Shown: positions 3,069-63,890, counted from the first letter of the stretch. The stretch: DNA of 64,000 nt from Bdellovibrionales bacterium (GCA_965205645.1 OZ242172.1:348633-412632); one strand, 5' to 3'. Notes: generated from the sequence alone by a model not told the origin. A program made the numbers and translations.

Positions 3069-3071
3069 TTT

Positions 3072-13326: not shown

Positions 13327-13327
13327 T

Positions 13328-14733: not shown

Positions 14734-14943
14734 ATGAAAAGTAGAAACTGGCAATGTCCTAAATGTAATCACCATGCCTGTGATGTTGACAAAATTTCAA
14801 CCACAGGTGGAATGCTTACAAAATGGCTCAACTTACAAAGTAAAAAATTTTCCACGGTTACTTGCAAAAAATGTAAATATACAGAGTTATATAAAGCCAC
14901 GACCAATCAATTAGAAAATATATTTGATTTTCTCTCTGGATAA
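14734..14943 (+). CDS. Small zinc-ribbon protein
   Basis: CPKCNHHAC ... CKKCKYTE (two CxxC pairs). Strong SD AAGGAGG 5 nt upstream of the ATG. Confidence 0.6.
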   Translation: MKSRNWQCPKCNHHACDVDKISTTGGMLTKWLNLQSKKFSTVTCKKCKYTELYKATTNQLENIFDFLSG

Positions 14944-15099
14944 ATACAAACAAGCTCTTCTAAAAAAGAGAGTAATTTATGACAAAATTAAAGGCATATA
15001 GTGTGGATGGTTTTTTACATTGCCAGTGTAATTAAAGAATCATATAAACTATTTGACTTGCATATATTCCGTGGATTATCATGATAATACACGAAATAG

Positions 15100-16278
15100 A
15101 TGAGGAAAAAAATGATTACTAGATATTTAAATCCAATGATGTTATTGAAAAAGTCATCCCATTTTCTTCTGGGTCCAAGAGCAGTGGGAAAAAGCACACT
15201 TATCAAAGCATGTTGTCTTAAAAGTTCTTCTAGTTCTAAAAGCTTTTCTGTGGATTATATAAATTTGCTGGATTCAAATCTCTATTTGCGATTAAAAAGC
15301 GATCCCTCTCTTTTGAGTTCTCTAATAAGTAAAAAATATGTGATTATTGATGAAGTTCAAAGAGTTCCTGAACTGCTTAACGAAGTACATCGTTTGATCG
15401 AGGATGAAAAAAAATATTTTTTACTTACGGGTAGCAGTGCAAGAAAGATCAGGCGAGGAAAGGCAAACCTTTTAGCCGGTCGTGCCTTTAGATCAGAGTT
15501 GTTCCCATTAACTTGGTTTGAACTTGCAGAGAATAAAAAATTCAAATTAAATCGTTATCTTCGCTTTGGAGGTTTGCCTTTAGCTTATTTAAAAAAACAT
15601 GGTGAGGAGTATCTCTATAACTATGTGGATACCTACCTGAAAGAAGAGATTCAATCGGAAGCTATAGTGCGCAATTTGCCTAATTATATAAGGTTTTTAC
15701 AAAGCGCCGCTTTTAATAATGCTCAACTGCTCAATTATACAAAGATAGCTAATGATTCTCAACTCTCACCTAATACTGTGAGAGACTATTATCAAATTTT
15801 AGAAGATACTTTAATTGGTTTTTCTGTATTTCCCTGGACACAATCAATCAAACGAAAAGCTGTTCAAACCGCAAAGTTTTATTTTTTTGATCCGGGTATT
15901 GTACATACTCTTTGTGAGACACAATCTCTGGACCCTAATAGTGATCTTTTTGGTCGGGCTTTTGAACAATTTATCGCTTGTGAGTTAAGAGCTTACCTTT
16001 CTTATAAAACAATCCGCACGCAGCTTAGATATTGGAGATCAAAATCGGGTTTTGAAGTTGATTTTGTTATTGGAAACAAAATGGCTATAGAGGTAAAATC
16101 CAGTAAAAAAATCAGTTTAAGGAACCATAAAGGTTTGTTGGCTATTAGTGAGGAAAATAATTGGAAGCATCTCATCATTGTTTCTCAGGATCCGATTGAA
16201 GCACAATTTAAAAATGGAATTCAACATTTGTATTGGGAAAATTTTTTAAAAAAATTGTGGAAAGGTAAGTTTTTTTGA
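15100..16278 (+). CDS. AAA_14/DUF4143-type ATPase (paralog)
   Basis: Walker A GPRAVGKST, Walker B YVIIDEVQ, LLTGSSARK, FEVDFVIGNKMAIEVKSS. The C-terminal YWENFLKKLWKG is shared with the paralogs. Confidence 0.8.
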   Translation: MRKKMITRYLNPMMLLKKSSHFLLGPRAVGKSTLIKACCLKSSSSSKSFSVDYINLLDSNLYLRLKSDPSLLSSLISKKYVIIDEVQRVPELLNEVHRLIEDEKKYFLLTGSSARKIRRGKANLLAGRAFRSELFPLTWFELAENKKFKLNRYLRFGGLPLAYLKKHGEEYLYNYVDTYLKEEIQSEAIVRNLPNYIRFLQSAAFNNAQLLNYTKIANDSQLSPNTVRDYYQILEDTLIGFSVFPWTQSIKRKAVQTAKFYFFDPGIVHTLCETQSLDPNSDLFGRAFEQFIACELRAYLSYKTIRTQLRYWRSKSGFEVDFVIGNKMAIEVKSSKKISLRNHKGLLAISEENNWKHLIIVSQDPIEAQFKNGIQHLYWENFLKKLWKGKFF

Positions 16279-16581
16279 TAAAATCTGTAAAATATAAAAT
16301 TTAGAATGGTTATGTAAATATATTATTGAAATAAAATAGATTGGAGTTTCTTTTTTGTAGATTCTTTTCCATAGGTTTTAACAGCTCGCTGGAGGTTTTT
16401 TTGATCCAGTTTCCTGAGTTGTCTTTTTAATAAGCTTTTATGTTTTACAGTGTCTTCTGCTAATTTATTAAAGCGGTTTAAAAATTCAACATATAAAAAC
16501 TCTTTGAAAAGTTTTCGAGAAAAATCCTGTTAAATTAAAATTTGAATCTAAAAAATTAATAAAATTAGATACTTATAAAAA

Positions 16582-16656
16582 TGGCATTCCCTACGGGACT
16601 TGAACCCGTGTCTTCACCTTGAAAGGGTGATATCCTAACCACTAGACGAAGGGAAC
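16582..16656 (-). tRNA. tRNA-Glu (anticodon UUC), CCA encoded
   Basis: The reverse complement GTTCCCTTCGTCTAGTGGTTAGGATATCACCCTTTCAAGGTGAAGACACGGGTTCAAGTCCCGTAGGGAATGCCA folds as a cloverleaf. Anticodon loop is CTTTCAA. Confidence 0.9.
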
Positions 16657-16660
16657 AGTG

Positions 16661-16733
16661 TGACCCGCCTTGGACTCGAACCAAGGACCCTCTCCTTAAA
16701 AGGGAGATGCTCTACCAACTGAGCTAGCGGATC
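16661..16733 (-). tRNA. tRNA-Lys (anticodon UUU), CCA not encoded
   Basis: Reverse complement is GATCCGCTAGCTCAGTTGGTAGAGCATCTCCCTTTTAAGGAGAGGGTCCTTGGTTCGAGTCCAAGGCGGGTCA. Anticodon stem TCTCC/GGAGA, loop CTTTTAA. Confidence 0.9.
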
Positions 16734-16737
16734 ATAG

Positions 16738-18048
16738 TCAATCATTAAACAAAGGTCTGCATTGTATTATTTTTTCTCTTTCTACACCAATAGAAACCAC
16801 ATCAATAGGAATATCTAGCTTTTTTTGGATAAATTGCACATAATTATAAGCATTCGTGGGCAAATCTGCCATCTTTTTTATATGCGAAATATCCGTTCCC
16901 CAACCTGGTAGTTGCTCATATATAGGCTCACATAAAGATAGATCTTCCGATCGGATAGGAAAATGTGAAATGACTTTTCCACGTAATTTGTAGGCCGTAC
17001 AAACCGGAATTTCTTTTAGCTGAGATAAAATGTCCAATTTCATTAAAGCTAAATGAGTGACCCCATTGATGCGGGTAGCGTAACTTAAAGCCACTAAATC
17101 CAACCAACCACAACGCCTCGCTCGCCCTGTCGTCGCTCCCCACTCTTCACCAGATTCTCGCAAATAACCTTGCATCGTATTGTGACATTCAGTAGGGAAA
17201 GGCCCTTCCCCCACTCGTGTCGTGTAACTTTTCACAATAGCTACTACCTTCTGAATGGCAGCTGATCCTATGCCAACACTCACTAGAGCCATACTCGCTA
17301 AAGTATTAGAGCTGGTTACATACGGATAAGTTCCATGCAAGATATCTAATAAGCCACCCTGCGCTCCCTCAAATAGTACCTTTTTTTTCTGAGCTAAGGC
17401 TTGATGAATGACACTAGAAATGTCATTTAAACGATGACACTCTAATTTTTGTCGCAAAACTAAAATATCTTGTAAAATGCTACTCATTGGACGAGGCTTT
17501 TTATGATAAAATTTTTCAATTAAAAAATGTTTTTCTGCAATCGCTGCACTTAATTTCTTTTTTAAGATATTTTCCGGATCAAATAAATCACCAAATAATA
17601 AAGCTTTCCTGGAAGCTCTGTCTTCATAAGCCGGGCCGATTCCTTTACCCGTTGTGCCTATTTTGCCCGAATGAGCTGCGTCTTCACGCGCTTGATCTAG
17701 TTCACGGTGGTAATCCAACAAAACAGTTGCTGAATCAGAAATTAACAATTGAGAAGAGTGAGCTAAATAGCCTAACTGTTTGACCGCTTGTATTTCATCT
17801 ACAAGGGCTGCAATATCTACGGCTACTCCTGGTGCAATAATGCACACAGTGGATGGATGGAAAATGCCAGAAGGAATTAAATGTAAAACTTGTCGCTGAC
17901 CTTTGATATATAAAGTATGACCAGCGTTAACGCCACCTTGATAACGAACGACATAATCCGCTTGACTAGAAAAAACATCAATTGCTTTTCCTTTTCCCTC
18001 ATCCCCCCACTGGGCCCCTATGACGATAATACCAGACACAAAAGACAT
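16738..18048 (-). CDS. purA: Adenylosuccinate synthetase
   Basis: GAQWGDEGKGK P-loop, GTTGKGIGPAYEDR, GATTGRARRCGWLD. The ATG at 18048 (MSFVSGIIVIGAQWGDEGKGK) is preferred over the TTG at 18075 used by the track. Confidence 0.9.
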   Translation of the reverse strand: MSFVSGIIVIGAQWGDEGKGKAIDVFSSQADYVVRYQGGVNAGHTLYIKGQRQVLHLIPSGIFHPSTVCIIAPGVAVDIAALVDEIQAVKQLGYLAHSSQLLISDSATVLLDYHRELDQAREDAAHSGKIGTTGKGIGPAYEDRASRKALLFGDLFDPENILKKKLSAAIAEKHFLIEKFYHKKPRPMSSILQDILVLRQKLECHRLNDISSVIHQALAQKKKVLFEGAQGGLLDILHGTYPYVTSSNTLASMALVSVGIGSAAIQKVVAIVKSYTTRVGEGPFPTECHNTMQGYLRESGEEWGATTGRARRCGWLDLVALSYATRINGVTHLALMKLDILSQLKEIPVCTAYKLRGKVISHFPIRSEDLSLCEPIYEQLPGWGTDISHIKKMADLPTNAYNYVQFIQKKLDIPIDVVSIGVEREKIIQCRPLFND

Positions 18049-51483: not shown

Positions 51484-52518
51484 ATGAAGAAAATTTTAGC
51501 TGTAGAGACTAGCTGTGATGATACAGCAGTGGCAGTGGTGCGGGCAGATGGTTTCGTAGAACACCATCTGGAAGTACACCAGCATACAGTGCATCAATCC
51601 TATGGTGGCATTGTACCGGAGCTAGCCAGTCGGAATCATGTGCATCATTTGCTACCTTTAATCAAGCAAGTATTGGAGGAAAGCCATAATTCTTGGGAGG
51701 ATATTTCTGGATTGGCGGTAACTAATCGGCCTGGTCTGGTAGGTGCTTTAATGGTTGGGTTAGTGACGATTAAAACTTTGTCTTTGGTAATGAAAAAACC
51801 TTATGTAGCGGTTAACCATGTAGAGGGACATTTACTATCTCCTTTTTTATGGGACAAAGAATGTGTGAAACCTTCGCAGCTTTCTTTTCCTTTTTTAGCT
51901 TTGATTGTTAGTGGTGCTCATACGCATCTGTTTGTTGTAGAGGAAGCCAGTCGGTATCGCTTAATTGGACATACAGTAGATGATGCAGCCGGGGAGGCGC
52001 TGGATAAATTTGCGAGACAACTGGGACTAGGATATCCTGGCGGGGCTAAAATAGATAAGCTTTCCCAAGGGGCTGAGCTGGGTCAATATCACTTTCCTTT
52101 AGTACAATTAAAAAAGAGCGAGCTAAATTTTAGTTTTTCAGGGTTAAAAACAGCTGCTGGGCGAAAATTACAAAAGCTAGGGGATCGGAAAGATAAAAAA
52201 TGGATATCTAATTTATGTGCGGATTACCAAGAGGCGATTGTGGATCATACTATTTCCCGTTTGGAAAAAGCGATTCAGAAATTTAGTTTACGCAACGTAA
52301 TGATTGCAGGAGGCGTGAGTGCTAATTCCAGATTACGTGTAAAATCTCATACTTGGGCAAATAAAAATGGAGTGTCGTTAGTGTTGCCGCAAAGTCGGTA
52401 TTGTACAGACAATGCAGCGATGATCGGTTATGCAGCTTTTGCACCTTTTCTGAAAGGGCAATATAGTCATCAAGATACTAATTGTTATCCTTATACATTG
52501 CCATCGGATTTTTTATGA
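51484..52518 (+). CDS. tsaD: tRNA N6-adenosine threonylcarbamoyltransferase
   Basis: ILAVETSCDDTAVAVV, GGIVPELASRNH, NHVEGHL, VSGAHT, AGGVSAN. Confidence 0.85.
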   Translation: MKKILAVETSCDDTAVAVVRADGFVEHHLEVHQHTVHQSYGGIVPELASRNHVHHLLPLIKQVLEESHNSWEDISGLAVTNRPGLVGALMVGLVTIKTLSLVMKKPYVAVNHVEGHLLSPFLWDKECVKPSQLSFPFLALIVSGAHTHLFVVEEASRYRLIGHTVDDAAGEALDKFARQLGLGYPGGAKIDKLSQGAELGQYHFPLVQLKKSELNFSFSGLKTAAGRKLQKLGDRKDKKWISNLCADYQEAIVDHTISRLEKAIQKFSLRNVMIAGGVSANSRLRVKSHTWANKNGVSLVLPQSRYCTDNAAMIGYAAFAPFLKGQYSHQDTNCYPYTLPSDFL

Positions 52519-53321
52519 ATGTACGAGAGATTAAAAATACAATACAAGAATTAAATTTCACACCAAAAAAATTTTTAGGGCAGCATTTTTTAACAAATAC
52601 AGCATTGATTCAGAAAATGATCACTGCAGTTAAAAAATTTGATCCAGCATTTATTATAGAAGTGGGACCAGGCTTAGGAGCATTAACAAAACCGCTAATG
52701 GATTTAAGTATTCCTTTGGTAGTCATAGAGCGAGATGTTATTTTATGCCGGTACTGGGAAAATAAAATATCTATTATTAAAGGGGATGCATTGAAAAGTA
52801 ATTGGATAGATTATTTAAAGCCTTCATCTTTGTTGGTTGGTAATTTACCTTATCAGATAGCTAGCCGTTTAGTGGTGCAGTGTTCGCAAAATATCCAACA
52901 TTTACGTTATATGGTATTGATGTTTCAAAAGGAAGTGGCTGAAAGAATTTGTGCGAAATCTCATTCTAAAAATTATGGATTATTGAGTGTATTGTCGCAA
53001 TCTGTTTGGGAAATAAAACACTTGGCGGGAGCTGATCCAAAAGATTTTTATCCACAGCCAAAGGTTTCTTCCAGCGTTTTGCTCTTTCAGAAAAAATCAG
53101 CGGGTGATGTTGTTTCTGATCTATCCGCATTTACTGAATTTATTAAATTATGTTTTACTCAGCGTAGGAAATTTTTGTTTAATCGGCTACAAAAGAAATT
53201 TGGAGCTAATCATGCGAAGGGTGTGTTTAATAAAATGGGGCTTTTATTATCTGTGCGAGCAGAGGAAGTGTCTGTGGGGCAGTTTGTGCATTTGTTTTGT
53301 CAGTTAAATAGATTGAAATAA
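52515..53321 (+). CDS. rsmA: 16S rRNA (adenine1518/1519-N6)-dimethyltransferase
   Basis: KKFLGQHFL, IIEVGPGLGALT, VGNLPYQI. ATGA overlap with tsaD. Confidence 0.85.
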   Translation: MNVREIKNTIQELNFTPKKFLGQHFLTNTALIQKMITAVKKFDPAFIIEVGPGLGALTKPLMDLSIPLVVIERDVILCRYWENKISIIKGDALKSNWIDYLKPSSLLVGNLPYQIASRLVVQCSQNIQHLRYMVLMFQKEVAERICAKSHSKNYGLLSVLSQSVWEIKHLAGADPKDFYPQPKVSSSVLLFQKKSAGDVVSDLSAFTEFIKLCFTQRRKFLFNRLQKKFGANHAKGVFNKMGLLLSVRAEEVSVGQFVHLFCQLNRLK

Positions 53322-53377
53322 AATTGATAAAAATAAATTTTTATTTTTTAAAAATTAATTTGTTTGCGTGAGGAAGA

Positions 53378-53863
53378 ATGAAAGCGGATACGAAAAATTC
53401 TAAGAAAGAGGATAATCATGTTATCGTGGCTACTCATCGCCGAGCTAAATTAGATTATTCAGTTTTGGATACTTGGGAAGCGGGATTAGTGCTACAAGGT
53501 TCAGAAGTAAAGTCTTTAAGAAAAAAACAGTGCCAGTTAAAAAATGCTTACGTTGTATTTCAAAAGAATGAAGCTTTTTTGCTGCATTTACATATTAGCC
53601 ATTATACTCCAGCAGCTTCTCGGAATCACGATCCAGAGCGAAAGAGAAAAATTTTACTGAATCGTTATGAATTGCTGAGATTATCTGGTCAGATTCATCA
53701 AAAAGGACTTTCGTGTATTCCTTTAAAAGTTTATTTTAGAAAACAGAAGGCTAAAGTGCAGTTAGCCTTGGTAAAAGGTAGAAGGAAGAGAGATAAAAGA
53801 GAGTATATTAAGAAAAAAGAAATGACCAAATCCGTGCGGCGTGCACTTCGCCGAGATAGATAA
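53378..53863 (+). CDS. smpB: SsrA-binding protein
   Basis: ATHRRAKLDYSVLDTWEAGLVLQGSEVKSLR, HISHYTP, DPERKRKILL, basic C-terminal tail. Confidence 0.85.
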   Translation: MKADTKNSKKEDNHVIVATHRRAKLDYSVLDTWEAGLVLQGSEVKSLRKKQCQLKNAYVVFQKNEAFLLHLHISHYTPAASRNHDPERKRKILLNRYELLRLSGQIHQKGLSCIPLKVYFRKQKAKVQLALVKGRRKRDKREYIKKKEMTKSVRRALRRDR

Positions 53864-54145
53864 TTTCGTAGTTAATTGTTTTTATTTATTGTTGATTGTA
53901 TTCACGGTTTATCTACAAACTATTTTATGAAATTTTTCCATTTTTCCTCCTTCCTAGGAGGCAATAGATAGTTGTATCTGATGATTAGCATATTTATATG
54001 GGTTAGTAGCAATAATGTTACTATTTTATTGATTTTTTAAATATAAAATTTACTAATGTTTAAAGATATTGCATGTGCTGATGGTTTATATTATTACTTA
54101 CTTAAATGAAGGCAAGCTACGGCTTGTGTTGGAGGAAGTTATTTT

Positions 54146-54616
54146 ATGAAGTTACATATTTTACGTATCGCTTGTTTGTTAGGGATAATTTTTGCTTATT
54201 CACTTTCTTGTTCTAAGACTACGAAAGAAACTACAAAGACATCCACAGGTGAGGAGGTTGAAAAAATAATATCACGTGGTGATGGTAAAACATGTGAAGT
54301 AGATCCTGTATGCGCTTATAACTATTTTCATGACTGCTGTGATCAAAGGGACAACTGTAAATGGTCAGAAAATCAAGGTGGAAGATGTGTCGCTAAAGAT
54401 TGTCTTAATACATCTTATTGTCCTAGCAAGGACACCATGGACTGTTGTAAACAAGATTCAAATTGTACATGGTTACATGGTCAATGTTTAGTTGCTGTTT
54501 GTCCTGAAAAAAAATACCTACCTTTATGCAGTAAAAGAGGGACTCAAGTTTGCTGTGAAGAATCACCTACGTGTGGTTGGATTAGTTCGCATAACAAGTG
54601 TGCTTCAGTAGAATAA
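54146..54616 (+). CDS. Cys-rich secreted lipoprotein with three internal C...CC...C.W...C modules
   Basis: Lipobox YSLSC. Modules are CAYNYFHDCCDQRDNCKWSENQGGRC, CPSKDTMDCCKQDSNCTWLHGQC and CSKRGTQVCCEESPTCGWISSHNKC. Confidence 0.6.
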   Translation: MKLHILRIACLLGIIFAYSLSCSKTTKETTKTSTGEEVEKIISRGDGKTCEVDPVCAYNYFHDCCDQRDNCKWSENQGGRCVAKDCLNTSYCPSKDTMDCCKQDSNCTWLHGQCLVAVCPEKKYLPLCSKRGTQVCCEESPTCGWISSHNKCASVE

Positions 54617-54658
54617 ACAAGGTTCATGATGATTTAAGAGGGTTATTCTCCAGTCTCT

Positions 54659-55654
54659 CTAGCCACAACCCCATTCACTATGAGTGTGACGAGATATTGT
54701 ATCATTCTCCAGTCTCTCTAGCCATCCATCTTCAAATATTCTAAGAAATGAAAAACATTTCCTCCATTGTATCCATGATCTGTGGCTTTCCCGATTCTCT
54801 CTAGCTACTTTCCAGTTCTCTTCTCTTGCCTTATCCTCTGTCTGCAATCGCAATTTATGCTTTTCTAAATTATGCTCATACTCCGCCTGAGCTTTGGCCT
54901 GAGCTATTATGTTATTTTGATATACAAGAGGTATTTTATGGACAGGTGTTACGCTTTCAACCTGCTTGGTTTGATGTTCATTGTTTATTTCCTGTAACTT
55001 AGCCTGTAATTCATCGTCTATTTCCTGCAACCTAGCCTTGTAATTCAGCCTCCCTTTTATTGACTCTTGTATCTTGGCTTGATGTTCATCGTCTATTTCT
55101 TGCAACTTAGCCTGTAATTCATCGTCTATTTCCTGCAACCTAGCTTGTAATTCAGCCTCCCTTTTATTGACTTGTATCTTGGCTTGATGTTCATCGTCTA
55201 TTTCTTGCAACTTAGCCTGTAATTCAAACCTAGCTTGTAATTCAGCCTCCCTTTTATTGACTTGTATCTTGGCTTGATGTTCATCGTCTATTTCTTGCAA
55301 CCTAGCTTGTAATTCAGCCTCCCTTTTATTGACTTGTATCTTGGCTTGATGTTCATCGTCTATTTCTTGCAACTTAGCCTGTAATTCATCGTCTATTTCC
55401 TGCAACCTAGCTTCTTGTAATTCAGCATCCCTTTTATTGACTTGTATCTTGGTTTGATATTCATCGTCTATTTCTTGCAACTTAGCTTGTAATTCAGCCT
55501 CTATTGCTTCTATTTTTTGAGGTAAATTTGCCCTTGCAGCATCAGCTTTTCTTTGCAGATCTTGTATCTCCCTATCAGTTACTGTTGCTGAAGTCTGACC
55601 GACACTGAATGCAACAAATATATAAAATAACGACAAATATCCCATCTTAAGCAT
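54659..55654 (-). CDS. Secreted coiled-coil protein built of tandem LQEIDDE(L/H)QAK...IQVNKREAELQAR repeats
   Basis: Signal peptide MLKMGYLSLFYIFVAFSVGQTSA. About 9 imperfect repeats are visible in the protein and as DNA tandem repeats. Confidence 0.6.
   Translation of the reverse strand: MLKMGYLSLFYIFVAFSVGQTSATVTDREIQDLQRKADAARANLPQKIEAIEAELQAKLQEIDDEYQTKIQVNKRDAELQEARLQEIDDELQAKLQEIDDEHQAKIQVNKREAELQARLQEIDDEHQAKIQVNKREAELQARFELQAKLQEIDDEHQAKIQVNKREAELQARLQEIDDELQAKLQEIDDEHQAKIQESIKGRLNYKARLQEIDDELQAKLQEINNEHQTKQVESVTPVHKIPLVYQNNIIAQAKAQAEYEHNLEKHKLRLQTEDKAREENWKVARENRESHRSWIQWRKCFSFLRIFEDGWLERLENDTISRHTHSEWGCG
54970..55500. repeat. Imperfect coding tandem-repeat array inside the coiled-coil gene
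   Basis: The unit core TTGATGTTCATCGTCTATTTCTTGCAAC(T/C)TAGC(C/T)TGTAATTC recurs about six times. Spacings vary from roughly 70 to 110 bp. Sub-modules are gained or lost between units. Confidence 0.8.
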
Positions 55655-55809
55655 CCTTTTTCAATGGCCTTATGTATGAATCTGTTTCCTATCCCTGCTT
55701 TATAGTAATGTAAAGCCATTTACCGAACAATTAGTTTTTAATTTTTTAATTTTCAGCGTATAAAATTTACACATATCCACAATAGCAAACTTTATATTGC
55801 CCCAAAGGG

Positions 55810-56025
55810 GTAAAAGAGGGACTCAAGTTTGCTGTGAAGAATCACCTGACTGTGGTTGGGTTAGTTCGCATAACAAGTGTGCTTCAGTAGAATAAACAAA
55901 TTAGTTTCTTTATTTTTAATGTGCTGATTACAACATTTTCAGTTTGTTAGATTCTGCTAGATGTTGTGTGTGTTGATCATTACATCTGCTGCTGCTGTTG
56001 CTGCAGTTTTTGTTTTGCGCATGAA
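55810..56025. repeat. Junction-duplicate B: copy of the 3' end of the Cys-rich gene (54531-54616) fused to a copy of the 3' end of the 338-aa gene (58900-59030 region)
   Basis: GTAAAAGAGGGACTCAAGTTTGCTGTGAAGAATCACCT...GTGCTTCAGTAGAATAAAC matches 54531-54618. The following AATTAGTTTCTTTATTTTTAATGTG.TGATTACAACATTTTCAGTTTGTT.GATTCTGCTAGATGTTGTGTGTGTTGATC matches 58900-58980. Confidence 0.85.
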
Positions 56026-56185
56026 ATTTAATTCATTAAATGAACCATATAAATCTTAGGCTAATAGTTAAAGTATAACTAAGAAAATAAAAAAGCTAAG
56101 ATAGCCAATAATATCTGTTTTTTTGTGCCAAAATTTTTATGTAATATTGCTTGTTAATGGCAGATTATCATGATAAATTATATTT

Positions 56186-57331
56186 ATGAGACAAATTATC
56201 ACAAGATGCTTAGATATATCTTTGGAGCGTGGGCAATCGGCTTTTCTTTGGGGGCCTCGCCGGGTAGGGAAAACTTATTGGTTAAAGCATCATTTTTTAA
56301 AGCCTCAGTATCATTTTATTGATTTACTAAAAACAGATACTTATTTTGAATATGTCTCTCGACCGGCTTTATTGAGAGAAAGGTGGAAGGGACAATTAAC
56401 TGTCATTGATGAGATTCAAAAAGTGCCAGCTTTGCTGGATGAAATTCATTGGCTGATTGAAAATAAATCTGCTTCTTTTTTATTAACCGGTTCTAGCGCT
56501 AGAAAACTTAGACGGAGTCATTCAAATCTGCTGGCTGGGAGAGCTTGGCGTTTTGAAATGTCTCCTCTTTCTTTTTATGAAACGAAAGGTTTTATTTTAG
56601 AAAAAGCTTTAATAACAGGATTACTTCCTTCTCATTTTTTATCCTCCTCTCCTTTAAGGGATTTAAGATCTTATGTTGCTGATTATCTCAAAGAGGAGAT
56701 TGCTATGGAATCTCTAGTGAGAAACATACCGGCTTTTACTGAGTTTTTAAGAACAGCAGCTCTAACTAGTTCAGAACTTTTGAACTATACAAATATGGCT
56801 AGAGAAACAGGCATAAAAGCCAAGGTGGTTCGGAGTTATTTTGAGATTTTAGAGGATACTTTTTTAGGTTATCGCCTTTCGCCTTGGAGATCATCTAAAA
56901 ATCGCAGGACAATTTTGACGGATAAATTTTATTTCTTTGATGTTGGAGTGGCTAATTATTTGGCAAAGAGAAATCCTCAAGTAGGTAACGAAGCTTTTGG
57001 AAAAAGTTTTGAACATTATATTTTGATGGAACTAATGAGTTACAAAAAATATAAAAATCCGGAGCTGGATATACATTATTGGAGGACGGCTTCTGGTTAT
57101 GAAGTAGATTTTATTTGCGGTGATATGCATACAGCAATTGAAGTAAAATCTTCCAGGAGAATACATAGTAACCATTTAAAAGGACTTAAAGCTTTGAAGA
57201 AAGAATGGAAAGTTAAAAATTTAATGGTGGTATGTTTAGAAAAACAAACTCGGGTGGTGGATAAAAATATATTCATTCTTCCTTGGAGAGTATTTCTGAA
57301 GAAACTTTGGAAAGAAGAACTAATTTCTTAA
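56186..57331 (+). CDS. AAA_14/DUF4143-type ATPase (paralog)
   Basis: Walker A GPRRVGKTY, Walker B LTVIDEIQ, LLTGSSARK, YEVDFICGDMHTAIEVKSS, C-terminal PWRVFLKKLWKEE. Confidence 0.8.
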   Translation: MRQIITRCLDISLERGQSAFLWGPRRVGKTYWLKHHFLKPQYHFIDLLKTDTYFEYVSRPALLRERWKGQLTVIDEIQKVPALLDEIHWLIENKSASFLLTGSSARKLRRSHSNLLAGRAWRFEMSPLSFYETKGFILEKALITGLLPSHFLSSSPLRDLRSYVADYLKEEIAMESLVRNIPAFTEFLRTAALTSSELLNYTNMARETGIKAKVVRSYFEILEDTFLGYRLSPWRSSKNRRTILTDKFYFFDVGVANYLAKRNPQVGNEAFGKSFEHYILMELMSYKKYKNPELDIHYWRTASGYEVDFICGDMHTAIEVKSSRRIHSNHLKGLKALKKEWKVKNLMVVCLEKQTRVVDKNIFILPWRVFLKKLWKEELIS

Positions 57332-57333
57332 GC

Positions 57334-57500
57334 ATTACAACATTTTCAGTTTGTTAGATTCTGCTAGATGTTGTGTGTGTTGATCCTTCATTTGCTGCTG
57401 TTGCTGCTGCAGTTTTTGTTTTTTTTGCGCGTGAAACTCAATGTTGGCAGTCAGTAATATTAAAAGACGATTGTCGGGATATAAATTCCTAATCGCAGTT
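57334..57500. repeat. Junction-duplicate C: near-identical copy of the 3' end of the 338-aa gene (58929-59095)
   Basis: ATTACAACATTTTCAGTTTGTTAGATTCTGCTAGATG...GCGCGTGAAACTCAATGTTGGCAGTCAGTAATATTAAAAGACGATTGTCGGGATATAAATT matches 58929 onward with few mismatches. It starts 2 nt after the ATPase stop. Confidence 0.85.
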
Positions 57501-57528
57501 ATCACTTTATTAAAATTACAAAATAAGC

Positions 57529-58665
57529 TTATTGATCTAGTAAGAAGCTTTCTGTTTGGGATAAAAAATTCTCATAATTATTTTTGTTAATAAAAATCGG
57601 GTGAGCTTTTTTGAAAGCATTTAAAAAAGCTTCCATTCCTGATACTATTTTTTTCTTTCCAAATTTCACTTCAATACCATAAATTTTATTTTGAAAATGA
57701 AATACAAAATCAATTTCTTTATTTCTATCTCTCCAATAGTACAGCTCACCGGGAAGGCGTAAAAGCTGCGCTCCCACTGTTGCTTCAAAAACACGAGAAG
57801 CAATATTTTTTTGATGACTAAATAATGAAAAGCAAGGACAAAGAGGTATAAACTTTGGAGAGCTTGATTTTATTTTTATCGCCTTAGATGAAAATTTTTC
57901 TAAAGATGCAAATAAAAAAGCTTTTTCATAAAAAGAGATATAGGTTTTTATAAGATCGGTATTTCCTTTGCTTTGCAGTTGTCCTAAGAGTTTTGTGTAG
58001 CTAATTTCCTGAGCAGGATAGTTACATAAAATATTAAAAACCTGTTTAAACAAAGCTGGTTTTTGAATATGCGAGAAAGGCAAAATATCCATATTAATAA
58101 CAGGTTCAATAATGGATTTTTTTATAAAGTTCTCAAACATTTCTTTTTTTTTGATTAATGAGTAAGAACCAGGATAACCACCTATTTTTAAAAATTGTTC
58201 AAGAGAAATAGAAATAATCTTTTTTGTTTCTAAAAAATTCCAATGGTAAACATTGATGATTTGATAACGGCCAGTTAAGCTTTCTGTGAGTCCTCTTTGG
58301 ATTTTAAGAGAACTAGATCCAAGTAAAATAAATTGGATTTTTTTATGTTTGGGAGATCTTAATTTCTCATCCCAGATTTTTTTTATAATCTCTGACCAAT
58401 TTCTTATTTTTTGAATTTCATCAATCACAAAATAAGTCACTTTTTTATGACAAGCTGTTTGCCATTCACTTAATATCCAAGAAAATTCATTTTCCAGGAC
58501 ACCATCTGCTGAAATATAATGATAAGGCTTTTTTTGTGATTTTAAAAAATGAATCACTCCTGTTGTTTTTCCAACCTGTCTTGGCCCTTGCACCACTTGA
58601 ATTAAGTGACCAATAGACAAGTTAGATTTAAGCGTCTTTATAAAAGGCAAGGGAACGATTTTCAT
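57529..58665 (-). CDS. AAA_14/DUF4143-type ATPase (more divergent paralog)
   Basis: Walker A GPRQVGKTT, Walker B YFVIDEIQ, LLGSSS, C-terminal KEIDFVFHFQNKIYGIEVKFG. Confidence 0.75.
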   Translation of the reverse strand: MKIVPLPFIKTLKSNLSIGHLIQVVQGPRQVGKTTGVIHFLKSQKKPYHYISADGVLENEFSWILSEWQTACHKKVTYFVIDEIQKIRNWSEIIKKIWDEKLRSPKHKKIQFILLGSSSLKIQRGLTESLTGRYQIINVYHWNFLETKKIISISLEQFLKIGGYPGSYSLIKKKEMFENFIKKSIIEPVINMDILPFSHIQKPALFKQVFNILCNYPAQEISYTKLLGQLQSKGNTDLIKTYISFYEKAFLFASLEKFSSKAIKIKSSSPKFIPLCPCFSLFSHQKNIASRVFEATVGAQLLRLPGELYYWRDRNKEIDFVFHFQNKIYGIEVKFGKKKIVSGMEAFLNAFKKAHPIFINKNNYENFLSQTESFLLDQ

Positions 58666-58757
58666 AATAAATACTATACAACAAAATAATAGATGTGTCT
58701 ATCATTTTACTAGATATATCTATTATTTTAATTGGTAGGGATTTGTATTATATATAT

Positions 58758-58898
58758 ATGAAGCTACATGTTTTACGTATTACTTGTTTGCTAGAGGTCT
58801 ACCTTTGTGCAGTAAAAGAGGGACTCAAGTTTGCTGTGAAGAAGCACCTGATTGTGGTTGGATTAGTTCGCATAACAAGTGTGCTTCAGTAGAATAAA
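58758..58898 (+). pseudogene. Internally deleted, frameshifted remnant of a Cys-rich lipoprotein gene (5' signal-peptide region joined to the last module)
   Basis: ATGAAGCTACATGTTTTACGTATTACTTGTTTGCT matches the 54146 gene start (MKLHILRIACLL). It is followed directly by ...CTACCTTTGTGCAGTAAAAGAGGGACTCAAGTTTGCTGTGAAGAAGCACCTG...TAGAATAAAC, which matches 54517-54618 but in a shifted frame. Track ORF 58695-58892 reads through it. Confidence 0.7.
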
Positions 58899-58929
58899 CC
58901 AATTAGTTTCTTTATTTTTAATGTGTTGA

Positions 58930-59946
58930 TTACAACATTTTCAGTTTGTTGGATTCTGCTAGATGTTGTGTGTGTTGATCCTTCATTTGCTGCTGTTGCT
59001 GCTGCAGTTTTTGTTTTTTTTGCGCGTGAAACTCAATGTTGGCAGTCAGTAATATTAAAAGACGATTGTCGGGATATAAATTTCTAATCGCTGTTCTGGC
59101 TTTGGATAAAATGAGCTGTGTATCTAACAAAGAGTAATTCTCATTAATCAACATCTGACGATATTGTTCATGTAAAGATTGTACTAGCCTTTGATAATGA
59201 AAATCGGATTCTGGTTGAATATATAAATTTTCCAATTGCTTTAATTGGGTGAATAAAGCTGGCTGCTCTTCTGCTTGTTTTACTTTAAAATTTTCTAGTT
59301 TTTCCCAACAATTTCCGCGGCACATTTCACCACTCCATTGATTATCTTTAACCCTAAAGCAAATAAATCCTTTATAGGAATCTTCCAATATTTGGATATG
59401 AGAAGGACTCATCTGGAAAGAAGAAAGATAATGTAGTTCCGACAACGAAGTTAATGGTTCAATGCAACCATTATCAATGATAGCCATTGGACCAAAATTT
59501 GATACTTTTAATTGTCCATCAAATTTAAGCACGACAGCTACTACATGCTCAGGATGGTGTGGGATGATTTCTATTTTGTCTCCTGTAGATAGATCTTTTT
59601 TGAGGCTGGTATCTATTATTTGCGCTAAATCCTTTTCCTGCTTGATTTTAATTAATTGCCAATTAGGAGCCTTAGCCATGTCTTCCGGTTCACACTCTGA
59701 CCAGCTATGTAGCCCAGCAAAGTCTGATAAGCTTTCTGTTAACGCTTGCTGTAATAAATGCAGGCGATCTTGCCAGTAAGGAATCAGTAGCACTTTTCTG
59801 TAAAAATTTTGCAACAATTCAAAACTTATTTGCTCATCCGGTTGACAAAAATAAGAAAAATAATTGTGCAGAACAAAAAATTCCTTATCAGAGGATGAAG
59901 ATAATTTATTAGATAGATATTTTTGAAAATCAGTGACAGCAGGCAT
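58930..59946 (-). CDS. Hypothetical protein with a C-terminal poly-Gln tract
   Basis: 338-aa ORF with C-terminus ...AQKKQKLQQQQQQMKDQHTQHLAESNKLKML. Its 3' end is the source of duplicates B and C. Confidence 0.55.
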   Translation of the reverse strand: MPAVTDFQKYLSNKLSSSSDKEFFVLHNYFSYFCQPDEQISFELLQNFYRKVLLIPYWQDRLHLLQQALTESLSDFAGLHSWSECEPEDMAKAPNWQLIKIKQEKDLAQIIDTSLKKDLSTGDKIEIIPHHPEHVVAVVLKFDGQLKVSNFGPMAIIDNGCIEPLTSLSELHYLSSFQMSPSHIQILEDSYKGFICFRVKDNQWSGEMCRGNCWEKLENFKVKQAEEQPALFTQLKQLENLYIQPESDFHYQRLVQSLHEQYRQMLINENYSLLDTQLILSKARTAIRNLYPDNRLLILLTANIEFHAQKKQKLQQQQQQMKDQHTQHLAESNKLKML

Positions 59947-60080
59947 AGTTTTGGAATAATAAATGTAATGTAAGTACCTAGTCGAGTAAATTTATTTATA
60001 CCAGAGGGGCTGTGTCATAATATTTGTGTCATTATCGTAAAATTATGTTATGAAAAAATAATTAGGAATCAGATAATAAA

Positions 60081-60668
60081 ATGAATCGTAAGATAAAATC
60101 TCAATTATTTGAAAATGCTGCAGAGCGGGAATCTACACAACAAAAAGTACAATTATCCTTAAAAGATTGGAAGGAAGTGATATCACGATTAAATCAAACA
60201 CAATTACAGGTTGAATCTTGCCATGAGAAAATAAATACAATGTATTCTCGGTTGGTAGGTTGGTTAACTCGCATTACAACAAAAATAGATGAAGTCTCTC
60301 AAGCACGTCAGAAATTGGAATCTGCTACGCATAATTTATTTCAGCAATGGGAGAAAAAAGTATTAGGTTGGGTAAAGCCTGAACAGAGACAGGAAGATCA
60401 AAGACATGTTGTTGACTTAATGCATCGCCATAGTCAATTTATTCAAGGTTATGGGCAAAACTTGGATACTCTTAAGAAATCTATGTCCAGAAATGAATAT
60501 CATATTTCTCAGTTGTTGAGCGAGATCCGGAACTTTCGTTTAGAAATGGATTTAGTGAAACGACAAGTGCATGCTCAGTCAGTGATCGCGGATCAATCTC
60601 TTCGATCCAGGTCTTTTAATATGGATTACGAGCTATCCGAAGGGGATGTCTCTACTTCTGTTCTGTAA
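60081..60668 (+). CDS. Hypothetical coiled-coil protein
   Basis: 195-aa helical ORF. Its 3' end overlaps the lspA 3' end by 43 nt (convergent). Confidence 0.45.
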   Translation: MNRKIKSQLFENAAERESTQQKVQLSLKDWKEVISRLNQTQLQVESCHEKINTMYSRLVGWLTRITTKIDEVSQARQKLESATHNLFQQWEKKVLGWVKPEQRQEDQRHVVDLMHRHSQFIQGYGQNLDTLKKSMSRNEYHISQLLSEIRNFRLEMDLVKRQVHAQSVIADQSLRSRSFNMDYELSEGDVSTSVL

Positions 60669-61129
60669 ATAATAAAAATAGCTGAAAACACTCCCACTAC
60701 AATAAAAATATCTCCGATGTTAAAAGCCGGCCAAACAAATCCTCTGAAATGGAAATCAAAAAAATCCACTACATAACCAAAATGAATTCGATCAATATAG
60801 TTACCCATTGCCCCGCCAAAAATAGAGGAAAAAGCTAGCAAATGAAATTTTTGCGTAACTTTTAACTGATGGATAATGGATACGATAAAAACAAAAGCTA
60901 ATACCGGTAAAATTAAGAACAAGATCGTGCGAATCACATCATTACTTTGTGAAAACACACCAAATACACCGCCTGTGTTTCGCACATACGTAAGGTTAAA
61001 AAAACCTGGGGTAATAATTTTTTCCTCTCCTAGATTGAATTGAGTATGAATGATCAATTTTGTCGCTTGATCCAAAGCAACAATCGCCAGTGAAATCGTT
61101 AAAAATAAACAATATTTCATATATTTCAT
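60626..61129 (-). CDS. lspA: Lipoprotein signal peptidase (signal peptidase II)
   Basis: LDQATKLII, VRNTGGVFG, GGAMGNYIDRIHFGYVVDFFDF, NIGD. Start taken at the Met just downstream of the ileS stop; the track ORF extends to 61180. Confidence 0.8.
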   Translation of the reverse strand: MKYMKYCLFLTISLAIVALDQATKLIIHTQFNLGEEKIITPGFFNLTYVRNTGGVFGVFSQSNDVIRTILFLILPVLAFVFIVSIIHQLKVTQKFHLLAFSSIFGGAMGNYIDRIHFGYVVDFFDFHFRGFVWPAFNIGDIFIVVGVFSAIFIIYRTEVETSPSDSS

Positions 61130-61139
61130 AAGTTTGTAT

Positions 61140-63890
61140 TTATAGCAGATTTTTTGTACATTTAAGACATATTTTTTCATTATTTAATTGTTCACTGTAA
61201 TGCCAGCACCGTTCACATTTCTCGCCTCTTGCCTTTTGAATAGTTATTTTTAGGTCTGTGGCAGATTGGATAGAAAGCTGTGACACGATCAACCATTCTT
61301 TAAAAGAGTCCAACCATTGACTGAATTCTTTAAATAAAGCTGGAGGTGCGTGGATCGTAGCTTGTACTTCTAAACTGGAACCTATTTGTTTATCTTTCCT
61401 CATTTGCTCCATTTTGGCATAAGCTGTTTTTCTAATGCTCAGCCAAGTTTCAAATTTTTTCTCCATTTTCGGTTGTATCCATTCCGATGGAGTCACAGGG
61501 AAATCAGTCAACAAAACGCTTTCTTTCTTTTCTCCAGGTAAGTGCTGATAAACTTCTTCACTTAAAAAAGTTACAATGGGACTCATTAAAGAAGTTAAAT
61601 TTTTTATTATTAAATAGATAGCACTTTGGGCAGACCTTCTCTCCTGACTATCTTCTTTAAAAGTATACAGGCGATCTTTTAAGATATCTAAATATAAAGA
61701 AGATAGAGTATTAGTAAAAAATACATTGAGTGTTTGATAAGTTTTGTAATAGAGAAAATTATCATAATGAACTTTAACTTGCGAGATGCATCTAGCGAGT
61801 TGACCTAAAACCCATTGATCTATTTCCTGCATTTTGGAAAAAGCTAATAAATGTTGATTGGGTGTGAAATTAAATAAATTTCCCAGCATAAAGCGAAAAG
61901 TATTTCTAAATCTTCTATAGGTTTCAGTGACTCTATCTATGATTTCAGCACTGAGTTGAAAATCTTGTGAATAATCTTCACTGCTAACCCAAAGCCGCAC
62001 AACGTCCGCTCCTCGTTGCGTAAGCATTGTCTGCAAATCAACAACATTTTTTTTGCTTTTACTCATTTTATATCCTGCAGCATCATTGATAAAGCAGTGG
62101 GTGATCAATGTTTTAAAAGGAGCTTTACCGTTCAAACAAATAGAAGAGTTTAGGCTGGTTTGAAACCATCCGCGGTGCTGGTCACTGCCTTCCAAATAAA
62201 CATCTGCTGGGAAAGTATCTTGGCCGTATTTTTTTTGGCACACAAAGTGGCATATTCCACTATCAAACCAGACATCCAAAATGTCTTTCCCTTTTTCCCA
62301 TGTATTGTTTTTGCATTTGGGACAATGAGGAACTGGATTAGGAAGTAACTGCTTGGTTGTGTGAGAAAACCAATATTCAATGCCTTGCTTAGATTCTTCC
62401 ATTTGATCCGCTATCCTTTTCATAATATTAGGATCGAGTAGAGGATGATCACATTGGCTGCAATAAAAAACGGGGATAGGTACACCCCAATGTCGTTGCC
62501 GGCTAAGGCACCAGTCCGGAGAATGTTTGATCATACTGTCTAATCGTCTACTTCCCCATGATGGGCAAAACTGGATCTGATGATGAATAGCTTCTAGAGC
62601 TTTTGCGCGCACAGGATATTCCGGTTGGTCAAGAGCAATAAACCATTGCTCAACCGCTCTTAAGATTAATGGAGAATTTGAGCGAGGATTAAAAGGATAA
62701 TTATGTGTAATTTCTGTTTCATGTAGCAGCATTTGTTGCTGCTTTAGTTTGTTAATAATTTGTGGATTGGCTTTAAATATAAAAGTACCTTTCCACTCTG
62801 TTACATCTGCAGTGAATTTTCCAGCAGCGTCTACAGGAGCAAAAATGGGTAATTTGTACTTAACACCGACTGTAAAATCATCTTGTCCATGCCCAGGAGC
62901 TGTATGTACACAGCCTGTTCCCTCTTTTGCAGTCACATGATCTCCTAAAATCACAAGAGAGTCTTGAGAAAGCCAAGGATGTCGGGCTTTTTGCCGTTCC
63001 AGGTCTTTACCTGGAAAAGAACATAGTTGATTTAATGAAAGATTTAAGTTTTTCTCCATAACACTTTTTAGTTGCTCCGCTAAAATTAATAGCTCCTTAC
63101 CAGAATCAAAAACGCCATAAAGTAGATCCGCTTTTAAACAAATGGCTTGATTGGCAGGAAGTGTCCAAGGAGTGGTTGTCCATATTACAAAATAGCAAGG
63201 TTTTTTGCTTTTTAATTGTAGATAAGTGGGGATATGCGGTGCTGGAAATTTAACATAAATAGAAGGGCTTTTACGTAAAGAATATTCCACTTCAGAATTG
63301 GCAATAGCTGTGTGTAAAACAGGGCACCAATACACAGGCTTTTTCCCACGGTAAAGTAATTTTTTATCAGTAATCATTGCCAGTGCGCGCACTTCTTGTG
63401 CTTCATATTCTGGATCCATTGTGAGTAAAGGATGATCCCAGTTAGCTAATACTCCTAAACGTTCAAATTGTTGCTTTTGCACTTCCACCCACTTCAGAGC
63501 TTCTGCGCGACACATTTTACGGATTTGTTCTCCTGTCCTAAGGTCTTGATTGCTTGATTTTTTCAATACGGCCAGTTCAATTGGTAAGCCATGACAGTCC
63601 CAAATGGGATTGAACGGGCAATGCCTGCCAGATAAGTTTCTGTACTTTACTGTAATATCTTTTAGGATTTTATTTAAAGCATGTCCGATATGTAACCGCC
63701 CATTTGCATAAGGAGGGCCATCTACAAAACTAAATAGCTTTTGTTGCTGTCGTTTTTGCATCAATTTTTGATAAATATGGTTTTTTTGCCAAAACTGAAT
63801 GAGCTTTGGTTCTTTTTCCGCCAGACCAGCTTTCATTGGAAAATTTGTTTTAGGAAGGTGCAAAATATATTGTTTTTTTTGCTCAGACAT
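61140..63890 (-). CDS. ileS: Isoleucine--tRNA ligase
   Basis: HIGH motif (PYANGRLHIGHALNK), KMSKS motif (GYKMSKSKKN), WTTTPWTLPAN editing-domain junction, C-terminal Zn finger CERCWHY...CLKC. Confidence 0.9.
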   Translation of the reverse strand: MSEQKKQYILHLPKTNFPMKAGLAEKEPKLIQFWQKNHIYQKLMQKRQQQKLFSFVDGPPYANGRLHIGHALNKILKDITVKYRNLSGRHCPFNPIWDCHGLPIELAVLKKSSNQDLRTGEQIRKMCRAEALKWVEVQKQQFERLGVLANWDHPLLTMDPEYEAQEVRALAMITDKKLLYRGKKPVYWCPVLHTAIANSEVEYSLRKSPSIYVKFPAPHIPTYLQLKSKKPCYFVIWTTTPWTLPANQAICLKADLLYGVFDSGKELLILAEQLKSVMEKNLNLSLNQLCSFPGKDLERQKARHPWLSQDSLVILGDHVTAKEGTGCVHTAPGHGQDDFTVGVKYKLPIFAPVDAAGKFTADVTEWKGTFIFKANPQIINKLKQQQMLLHETEITHNYPFNPRSNSPLILRAVEQWFIALDQPEYPVRAKALEAIHHQIQFCPSWGSRRLDSMIKHSPDWCLSRQRHWGVPIPVFYCSQCDHPLLDPNIMKRIADQMEESKQGIEYWFSHTTKQLLPNPVPHCPKCKNNTWEKGKDILDVWFDSGICHFVCQKKYGQDTFPADVYLEGSDQHRGWFQTSLNSSICLNGKAPFKTLITHCFINDAAGYKMSKSKKNVVDLQTMLTQRGADVVRLWVSSEDYSQDFQLSAEIIDRVTETYRRFRNTFRFMLGNLFNFTPNQHLLAFSKMQEIDQWVLGQLARCISQVKVHYDNFLYYKTYQTLNVFFTNTLSSLYLDILKDRLYTFKEDSQERRSAQSAIYLIIKNLTSLMSPIVTFLSEEVYQHLPGEKKESVLLTDFPVTPSEWIQPKMEKKFETWLSIRKTAYAKMEQMRKDKQIGSSLEVQATIHAPPALFKEFSQWLDSFKEWLIVSQLSIQSATDLKITIQKARGEKCERCWHYSEQLNNEKICLKCTKNLL

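Follow-up and report, generated by a model that had tools for sequence, protein, structure and literature searches.

A locus in the chromosome of a small-genome (~1.56 Mb) Bdellovibrionales-like bacterium raises the question of how unrelated genes come to lie one after another between the same two neighbours. The stretch of DNA that we analysed, referred to here as the window, comprises 64,000 nucleotides (Bdellovibrionales bacterium GCA_965205645.1, OZ242172.1:348633-412632) and contains a slot between smpB and a gene encoding a 338-amino-acid (338-aa) protein. In order, we find smpB, a gene for a Cys-rich protein that ends in repeat copy A, a coiled-coil gene, copy B, ATPase 1, copy C, ATPase 2, copy D and the 338-aa gene (Table 1). 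The original prediction for this DNA regarded it as an insertion hotspot for DUF4143-type ATPase genes, which were proposed to move, by themselves or with a carrier, with a preference for this site. On the evidence presented below, it seems likely that the region is a strain-variable accessory slot, delimited by the stop codons of its two boundary genes and built by serial displacement in which each event combined a homologous with an illegitimate join, the ATPases being cargo.

Repeats were mapped by self-BLAST of positions 53000-61000 against the whole window, together with repeat finding and multiple alignment. Four copies, partial or whole, of the Cys-rich/338-aa gene junction are present (54518-54620, 55810-56032, 57334-57508 and 58754-59103). 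Self-BLAST and repeat finding recovered, within a few bases, all the junction copies that had been predicted, although these were described as near-identical and the identities that we obtained range from 89 to 97%. In the self-BLAST, copy B matched 58812-59037 (92.1% over 227 bp, E 1e-89) and the part of copy A at 54531-54620 (95.6% over 90 bp, E 8e-36), and copy C matched 58929-59103 (96.6% over 175 bp, E 3e-79), starting 2 nt past the stop codon of ATPase 1 (57329-57331). Within copy D, 58754-58794 is ~87% identical to the first ~40 bp of the Cys-rich gene, and 58799-58899 is 95.0% identical to 54518-54618 (E 4e-40, self-BLAST). Since a 5′ piece of ~41 bp is joined here to a 3′ piece of 101 bp, copy D represents a frame-shifted Cys-rich gene from which 335 bp have been lost internally. 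The ends are sharp at every copy, and local alignments of the adjoining sequences scored no better than shuffles. Beyond these copies, long repeats in the 64 kb are limited to an unrelated 79-bp pair, a short palindrome and the internal repeats (33-75 bp) of the coiled-coil gene.

The displaced fragments form two series, each in a single orientation and with acquired genes lying between its members. One runs from the full 338-aa gene to copy C (175 bp) and then to copy B (108 bp), the other from the full Cys-rich gene to copy B (90 bp) and then to copy D. A cassette comprises a single gene, 88-155 bp of native DNA upstream of it and 2-38 bp past the stop codon; cassettes are found in both orientations and have their own promoters. 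The direct copies that bracket them measure 90 bp for the coiled-coil gene, 108 bp for ATPase 1 and ~680 bp for ATPase 2 (Cys-rich gene, spacer and 175 bp). This nesting of boundary-gene copies bears out the proposal that successive insertion or recombination events occurred at one place, with duplications far longer than a transposase would make at its target.

Searches for the enzymes and ends of known mobile elements were negative, as the original prediction had anticipated. No transposase, integrase, excisionase or remnant of one was found in or near the slot, where the open reading frames (ORFs) from tsaD to ileS could all be accounted for and include no recombinase, and a tblastn search of the window with the integrase of L012, a locus considered below, gave no match. 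No inverted repeats bracket a cassette, the best pair (22 nt) lying inside the coding regions of both ATPases, and the cassette borders share no end motif; the one element in common, a palindrome close to the promoter, precedes ATPase 1 and ATPase 4. A transposon or insertion sequence was rejected because transposase and terminal inverted repeats are missing and the duplications, at 90 to ~680 bp, are not of a short fixed length. There is no intI gene, and the sequences between cassettes are boundary-gene fragments rather than the imperfect palindromes of attC sites; an integron cassette array was ruled out by the lack of integrase and attC sites, by the cassettes' own promoters and by their occurrence in both orientations. 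An attachment site in a tRNA or tmRNA gene was also discounted, there being none at the locus and the window's only tRNAs lying at 16.6 and 24.7 kb. In the region 53000-60500 no known RNA family was detected at E <0.1, and promoter and terminator scans performed at chance level.

We next consider the same site in other genomes. Contigs obtained via homologues of the 338-aa protein, together with a scan of species-representative genomes, assign the organism to uncultured Bdellovibrionales-like bacteria whose chromosomes measure 1.4-1.8 Mb. In L001, L003, L005/L007 and L008, whose IleS proteins are 88, 73, 68 and 65% identical to that of the window, respectively, the gene order is ileS, lspA, a 195-aa gene, the 338-aa gene and smpB. 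The slot is empty in all of these, smpB being convergent with the 338-aa gene and either overlapping it or lying ≤121 bp away. In L006 the 338-aa gene is followed by an ankyrin-repeat lipoprotein gene, and the contig ends before smpB. Wherever a contig spans both sides, smpB and the 338-aa gene flank the slot, and five states of occupancy were seen. As smpB and the 338-aa gene converge directly in the more distant relatives, all of 53864-58929 (~5 kb) is lineage-specific. This includes the Cys-rich gene, which had been taken as one side of the ancestral junction and is absent from these relatives.

Closer strains were found via members of the window's own protein clusters. Two long-read assemblies, L009 (4x coverage) and L010 (2x), provide informative alleles. 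The 10-kb contig L010 contains smpB, the Cys-rich gene, the spacer and the 338-aa gene without the rest of the array, so that the predicted empty site, with the Cys-rich gene directly convergent with the 338-aa gene, does exist. The 152-kb contig L009/L011, from another sample and assembly, carries the full array from the coiled-coil gene to the 338-aa gene with the same junctions. In L009, ~2 kb of other sequence replaces the short Cys-rich gene and its upstream region. The coiled-coil cassette has its left join at 54619/20 in window and L009 alike, but to a different gene in each.

Identity between these strains is mosaic. Window and L009 diverge by only ~0.2-0.3% over 54990-58811 (the array being ~99.8% identical, and the ATPase 2 protein fully so), compared with 2.3% in smpB and rsmA, ~7% over 58812-60200, which contains the 338-aa gene, and ~1% beyond. 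Against L010, divergence is 0.2% over 52500-53870 and 58798-61500, and 4.8% over 53871-54618; the region upstream of the Cys-rich gene (53864-54145) differs by 2.9%, in comparison with 0.2% for smpB and the genes preceding it. On the left, the divergence from L010 and the loss of homology with L009 both start at 53871-53890, just past the smpB stop codon. The right-hand recombination breakpoint falls at 58807-58822, inside the Cys-rich 3′ repeat of copy D, and the sole Cys-rich 3′ end of L010 shows 0/90 differences from copy D and 5/90 from copy A. The simplest account of this pattern would be one homologous replacement of a ~4.9-kb tract (53871 to ~58810), with one crossover where smpB ends and the other within the Cys-rich 3′ repeat. 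The difference between window and L010 could represent either a gain in the window lineage or a loss in that of L010, both of which fit. The near-identical array between diverged flanks, the crossover within a repeat and the gene conversion described below indicate that ordinary recombination between strains moves the array now.

The copies themselves retain traces of their age. Window and L009 differ at four sites in copy C, and at three of these each copy has the base of its own strain's live 338-aa gene. Since copy C thus co-varies with the resident gene, gene conversion has taken place within each genome. Over 54 codons copy C carries three substitutions relative to the live gene of the window, all synonymous, indicating that it is a piece of a once-functional allele and not a product of random decay. 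Copy B contains indels and has kept three bases in common with the outgroup L001 that are lost in copy C and the live gene, which identifies it as the oldest fragment. Because the duplications are common to window and L009, including the internal deletion of copy D, which is identical in the two, they pre-date the separation of the arrays or their exchange. The single insertions are old, while the array taken as a unit still varies among strains. An alternative outcome foreseen at the outset, an ancient and static structure, holds in part for the individual insertions (shared with L009, with ancestral bases kept in copy B), but not for the slot as a whole.

In the account that we favour, DNA from a related strain with a different slot allele would recombine into the locus. 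One exchange would take place in a shared boundary gene (the 3′ end of the 338-aa or the Cys-rich gene), and the far end would be joined illegitimately within the same boundary gene, upstream of the exchange. The recipient piece between the join and the end of the gene would then persist as a dead fragment, and the donor copy would complete the live gene. The incoming DNA may have been linear (homology-facilitated illegitimate recombination) or a circle (a single Campbell-type crossover), routes that are indistinguishable from sequence because they lead to the same product. With each event dead copies would be pushed further into the slot, generating the nested repeats B, C and D. We infer the combination of homologous and illegitimate joining, the nature of the donors and the following order of events. 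The Cys-rich gene would first have been inserted between smpB and the 338-aa gene; insertion of ATPase 1 would then have given rise to copy B; ATPase 2 and a second Cys-rich gene would have arrived next, creating copy C, with decay of the redundant Cys-rich copy to give D; and the coiled-coil gene would have been inserted at the left. At present the finished array is handed on between strains, or lost, as a unit via ordinary homologous recombination in flanks and repeats, with gene conversion keeping copy C similar to the live gene.

Further observations are relevant to this account. The stop codon of ATPase 1 lies 3 nt from that of copy C, a spacing as tight as in the native smpB/338-aa pairs of L003 and L005, and the arrangement looks like a native tight convergent pair derived from such a donor. 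Junction j1 shows 2 nt of microhomology. Similar scars are also found beside inserts that are not ATPases, namely the coiled-coil cassette, a 5′ copy of an AAA_15 gene in L015 and a DUF2779 fragment elsewhere in the window, which supports the displacement reading.

Several points weigh against serial displacement. We found no donor allele with the intermediate junctions predicted, in which ATPase 1 would be directly convergent with a full 338-aa gene or a full Cys-rich gene would adjoin the ATPase 2 promoter. For most junctions a single parent sequence was available, and microhomology could be checked only at junction j1 (2 nt) and at the internal deletion of copy D (1-2 nt). In the laboratory, homology-facilitated illegitimate recombination usually yields deletions, and a join inside the anchor is atypical. 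Two strains have the coiled-coil cassette joined on its left to different genes, yet at positions that agree to within 2 nt, which random illegitimate joining does not predict. DNA uptake, by competence or another route, would have to be presumed in this uncultured lineage. Finally, part of the 0.2% divergence may be sequencing error, since the coverage of L009 and L010 is low.

An alternative is that the array consists of the remains of integrative islands, in which DNA would have been integrated site-specifically into the 3′ end of the 338-aa gene by a recombinase of the tyrosine or serine type that acted in trans or has since disappeared, with tandem integrations displacing successive 3′ ends. 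Islands that target tRNA genes or gene 3′ ends carry a replacement 3′ end, and the repeated unit here is a gene 3′ end, with the gene left intact as at classical att sites. In L012, an 86% homologue of ATPase 1 also belongs to an island that immediately follows tRNA-Lys/tRNA-Glu and contains genes for a tyrosine integrase and an HTH_17 protein, and the other two PDC-S01 genes of the window lie directly downstream of tRNA-Glu/Lys. However, the slot and its surroundings contain no integrase or excisionase gene or remnant, and the locus contains no tRNA or tmRNA. The 338-aa fragments end at 108 and 175 bp with no common core, the Cys-rich fragments start at differing points, and the Cys-rich duplications (90, 101 and ~480 bp) would require a second site. 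Moreover, the copied Cys-rich gene and spacer within one insert represent the chromosome of a related strain and not attP. No att-like copies of the tRNA-Glu/Lys 3′ ends were detected in the window or in L012. We consider this origin improbable.

Whether the ATPases are themselves the movers depends on what they are and where else they occur. ATPase 1 matches the Pfam families AAA_14 (E 4e-22, 79.2 bits, cut-off 27) and DUF4143 (E 1e-33, 116.4 bits, cut-off 28.1), and ATPase 2 scores 87.5 and 60.9 bits, respectively, against the same cut-offs. In PADLOC both match PDC-S01 (ATPase 1, E 1e-60; ATPase 2, PDLC04791, E 1e-116), and values for the four paralogues of the window, which include genes at 13328-14467 and 15100-16278 directly downstream of tRNA-Glu/tRNA-Lys, range from 1e-59 to 1e-116. 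Walker A (G-P-R-x-x-G-K), Walker B (I-D-E) and the residues D308, E319 and K321 (D...E-x-K) are invariant in all four. DUF4143 belongs to the PD-(D/E)XK nuclease superfamily (PMC3424549), and PDC-S01, an ATPase fused to a PD-(D/E)XK domain, is very common and was nominated by genomic embedding, with validation pending (PMC12988326). Both proteins are accordingly assigned to the candidate defence family PDC-S01 (COG1373) as putative single-gene members with their own promoters, and their presumed function in defence follows from this assignment. No solved structure was detectable for ATPase 1 by sequence. ATPase 1 and ATPase 2 share 25% protein identity and have no DNA or end motifs in common.

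ATPase 1 has thousands of homologues. We compared five genes of its type, that of the window and four homologues with 80-86% protein and 76-88% DNA identity, and found them in five unrelated contexts. Besides the smpB slot of the window and the island in L012, which has a 104-bp repeat nearby, these are a type I restriction-modification locus in L015, beside an AAA_15/DUF4276 pair; the interval between secY and adk in the ribosomal protein operon of L096; and a position near tuf in L097, where interspersed palindromic repeats are seen instead of long duplications. DNA homology among the five extends only from ~47 bp before the ATG to the stop codon (window 56138-57340).

These contexts allow the ATPase-nuclease cassettes to be evaluated as self-mobilizing units, which would insert promoter and gene through staggered breaks or break repair and duplicate 100-700 bp of target. 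Four paralogues occur within 64 kb, the homology limits are constant across the five sites, the nuclease and ATPase motifs are intact, and in the window, L012, L015 and L096 (where an adk fragment is involved) the gene is enclosed or adjoined by long direct copies of nearby sequence. On the other hand, purifying selection alone would leave homology confined to promoter and ORF at such divergence. The cassettes lack defined ends, inverted repeats and shared end motifs, the duplications vary irregularly in length (90, 108 and ~680 bp), such scars also occur beside inserts without an ATPase (the coiled-coil gene, the PARIS-like pair of L015 and the DUF2779 block), and in L015 the duplication brackets the neighbouring gene pair instead of the ATPase. 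We know of no DNA transposon that makes such long duplications. Across 36 metagenomic loci, repeat pairs flanking the ATPase (16) were no commoner than non-flanking pairs (19), and they were of mixed nature, as random placement predicts; flanking repeats were consequently judged not to be a specific property of the family. We regard self-mobilization as very unlikely. A specific form of the idea, in which the PDC-S01 promoter and ORF (~1.2 kb) would constitute a selfish cassette without ends, with breaks made by its nuclease/ATPase activity or fork collapse being repaired so as to duplicate 0.1-0.7 kb, appears very improbable. If true, it would explain why homologues occupy unrelated sites, even secY-adk, often next to long duplications of their neighbours.

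Since scars are found beside non-ATPase inserts, defined ends are lacking, flanking repeats are not in excess and no close relatives of either ATPase were found in a viral contig collection searched for carriage by phages or satellites, we treat the ATPases as cargo. The long duplications are treated as a putative signature of the integration route and not of the ATPases, and may also be favoured by selection that keeps gene-dense, partly essential boundary genes intact. The original prediction is therefore supported as regards a hotspot and serial recombination, but not as regards the ATPases being the moving agent with a preferred site: one cassette is not an ATPase, the two that are have only 25% identity, genes of the ATPase 1 type occupy five unrelated sites without an excess of flanking repeats, and present turnover takes the form of homologous exchange of the whole array.

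Origin within a single chromosome, by unequal exchange between sister chromosomes and tandem duplication across the junction followed by deletion and divergence, would not call for imported DNA. Direct repeats of one orientation in nested order can be obtained by tandem duplication with partial deletion, and gene conversion demonstrates that copies interact within a genome. Such a process cannot supply three unrelated genes that are absent at this site from all the more distant relatives, and the cassettes themselves are not duplicated; the mosaic identity reflects exchange between strains, and the synonymous-only differences of copy C point to another functional allele. We therefore hold this origin to be most improbable. 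The chance of an assembly artefact through mis-joined reads or collapsed strain variants is negligible, for although this is a metagenome-assembled chromosome and strain variants of the locus co-exist in related samples, the copies are 3-11% apart so that reads would not be confused, every junction is unique sequence, and L009, an independent assembly, reproduces the arrangement of cassettes and copies junction for junction, which excludes it.

In addition to the array itself, several features of the slot genes were recorded. The Cys-rich protein has no match in Pfam, NCBIfam or PADLOC; a word search retrieved only its own L010 allele, and a full HMMER search found its repeats in two giant proteins. 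In these metagenomic proteins, P0140 and P0141 (3594 and 2499 aa), the 35-residue Cys-rich repeat occurs 38 and 13 times, and it thus represents a module of very large proteins, presumably located at the surface. Between window and L010, ~18 substitutions are concentrated at 54267-54330, in the first Cys-rich repeat of the lipoprotein gene, with flanks that diverge by 0.2%; this cluster could reflect diversifying selection or a small imported patch. In L009, the segment 8709-10224 contains a long gene with many CC-x5-C-x-W repeats and a Hint/intein-like C-terminal domain (...VHNY, stop); its reading frame, broken in the 4x assembly, closes with a stop codon that overlaps the left end common to the coiled-coil cassettes of both strains. 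As this Hint-domain gene is the sole feature resembling polymorphic toxins, a polymorphic-toxin locus was considered and ruled out, there being no toxin tip or immunity pair.

Pfam returned nothing convincing for the Cys-rich, coiled-coil or 338-aa proteins. In the otherwise near-identical array, a patch encoding the C-terminal domain of the coiled-coil protein (54750-54990) is ~10% divergent from L009, and a 162-bp difference in repeat number (55134-55295) results in a protein of 331 aa in the window and 275 aa in L009. Homologues of the 338-aa protein are few and were found only in Bdellovibrionales-like genomes, always beside lspA and ileS. This protein is 91.7% identical to that of L009, compared with 97-99.5% for the products of neighbouring genes, and its gene may be either fast-evolving or a separately imported allele.

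Other observations concern the surroundings of the ATPases. ATPase 1 and the paralogue at 15100 each have the perfect palindrome ATTATCATGATAAT (56160-56180 and 15070-15090) ~10-25 nt ahead of their start codon. Similar sequences (GATTATCCTGATAAT, ATATCAGGATAAC) are kept before the homologues in L015, L012 and L096, and the palindrome may be an operator or part of a promoter that travels with the gene. In L096 (5700-11100), the 80% homologue and an FGE-sulfatase gene are bracketed by an adk copy and a 117-bp repeat (7765-7878 versus 9489-9602). The adk copy (9306-9448; 143 bp, 95% identical) corresponds to codons ~23-70. Here an insertion accompanied by duplication of its target interrupts a gene order that is among the most highly conserved. 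In L015, the 5′ end of the AAA_15 (PARIS AriA-like) gene is duplicated over 267 bp (3783-4049 and 5677-5943, 97% identical), and the copy forms an 87-codon ORF that continues into the DUF4143 ATPase promoter.

At its left end (1-16750) the window contains a defence-type island. It adjoins tRNA-Glu/tRNA-Lys (16582-16733) and contains two further PDC-S01 ATPases in addition to the genes listed in Table 1. Within it, a 79-bp copy of the 3′ end of the DUF2779 gene, 78% identical, lies in an intergenic position (3683-3761) 9 kb upstream of the original (12715-12793). This displaced fragment is a scar of the same type as those at the smpB slot, and the block that it brackets has no ATPases.

Table 1. 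Features of the smpB slot and of the island at the left end of the window
Feature	Position	Strand	Description
smpB	53378-53863	+	Conserved left boundary gene; Pfam SmpB, E 1e-48
Cys-rich gene upstream region	53864-54145	+	Part of the strain-variable tract
Cys-rich gene, intact	54146-54616	+	156 aa, secreted or lipoprotein; three CC-x5-C-x-W repeats
Copy A	54518-54620	+	Last ~100 bp of the intact Cys-rich gene plus 4 nt
Cassette 1	54621-55809	-	Secreted coiled-coil repeat gene (54659-55654) with ~155 bp of its own upstream sequence
Copy B	55810-56032	+	Cys-rich 3′ end (90 bp), 30-bp spacer and last 108 bp of the 338-aa gene
Cassette 2	56033-57333	+	ATPase 1 gene (56186-57331) with promoter region
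Copy C	57334-57508	-	Last 175 bp of the 338-aa gene; open 56-codon frame
Cassette 3	57509-58753	-	ATPase 2 gene (57529-58665) with ~88 bp of upstream sequence
Copy D	58754-58929	+	Cys-rich pseudogene and 30-bp spacer, in the original position beside the 338-aa gene
338-aa gene	58930-59946	-	Conserved right boundary gene, poly-Q tail; 3′ end is the repeated anchor
QatC-like gene	1281-3068		Left-end island
MzaC/Z1-like gene	3809-6373		Left-end island
Type IIG/DrmMI-like methyltransferase gene	6819-10115		Left-end island
DUF2779 gene	10788-12794		Left-end island

The way in which genes enter hotspots that lack mobile-element genes is still largely inferred, and here the steps are legible: illegitimate joins within boundary genes, each of which a duplication leaves complete; dead fragments by which events can be dated; transfer of the completed array between strains via homologous recombination; and gene conversion among the copies. 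The three natural alleles (empty, one gene and full array) could be used in population or PCR studies. The PDC-S01 ATPase-nucleases appear as unusually mobile cargo in small-genome Bdellovibrionales-like bacteria and are reasonable candidates for a defence assay.

In Campbell-type insertion-duplication, integration of a circle by a single crossover leaves an insert bracketed by direct copies of tens to hundreds of base pairs, which can later delete the insert. The product here is the same, but no circular intermediate or vector is known. A homologous anchor combined with an illegitimate join has been proposed for type VI secretion system (T6SS) effector-immunity arrays, for Rhs and for the orphan modules of contact-dependent inhibition (CDI) systems (PMC5361080). 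The slot resembles Rhs, CDI orphan cdiA-CT/cdiI and Vibrio cholerae T6SS arrays in having a full gene followed by displaced partial copies with new genes between them, and in the exchange of finished arrays between strains via homologous recombination (PMC5361080). It differs in that two convergent boundary genes serve as anchors through their 3′ ends, in place of the conserved 5′ body of a toxin gene, that displacement took place from both sides with no secretion system involved, and that the cargo consists of single genes (two ATPase-nucleases and a coiled-coil protein) instead of toxin-immunity pairs.

Conserved flanks, strain-variable content and the lack of transposase and integrase are shared with the core defence hotspot cDHS1 of Pseudomonas aeruginosa (PMC10250203). 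Transfer of core defence hotspots by homologous recombination in their flanks has been proposed (PMC10250203), and the mosaic described here supports such transfer. Compared with cDHS1, the slot is small (0-5 kb against a median of 26 kb), its building steps can be read as duplication scars, and its defence content is limited to the two PDC-S01 candidates, the other occupants being secreted proteins without a PADLOC match. The ATPases agree with PDC-S01/COG1373 in having both domains, with strong scores and the catalytic residues, and a close homologue lies in a type I restriction-modification locus, a context of the kind used for nomination. Overall, our findings require no new mechanism, and the locus is a well-documented further case, and a fairly ordinary one, of an accessory slot with defence candidates that is built by displacement and exchanged by homologous recombination.

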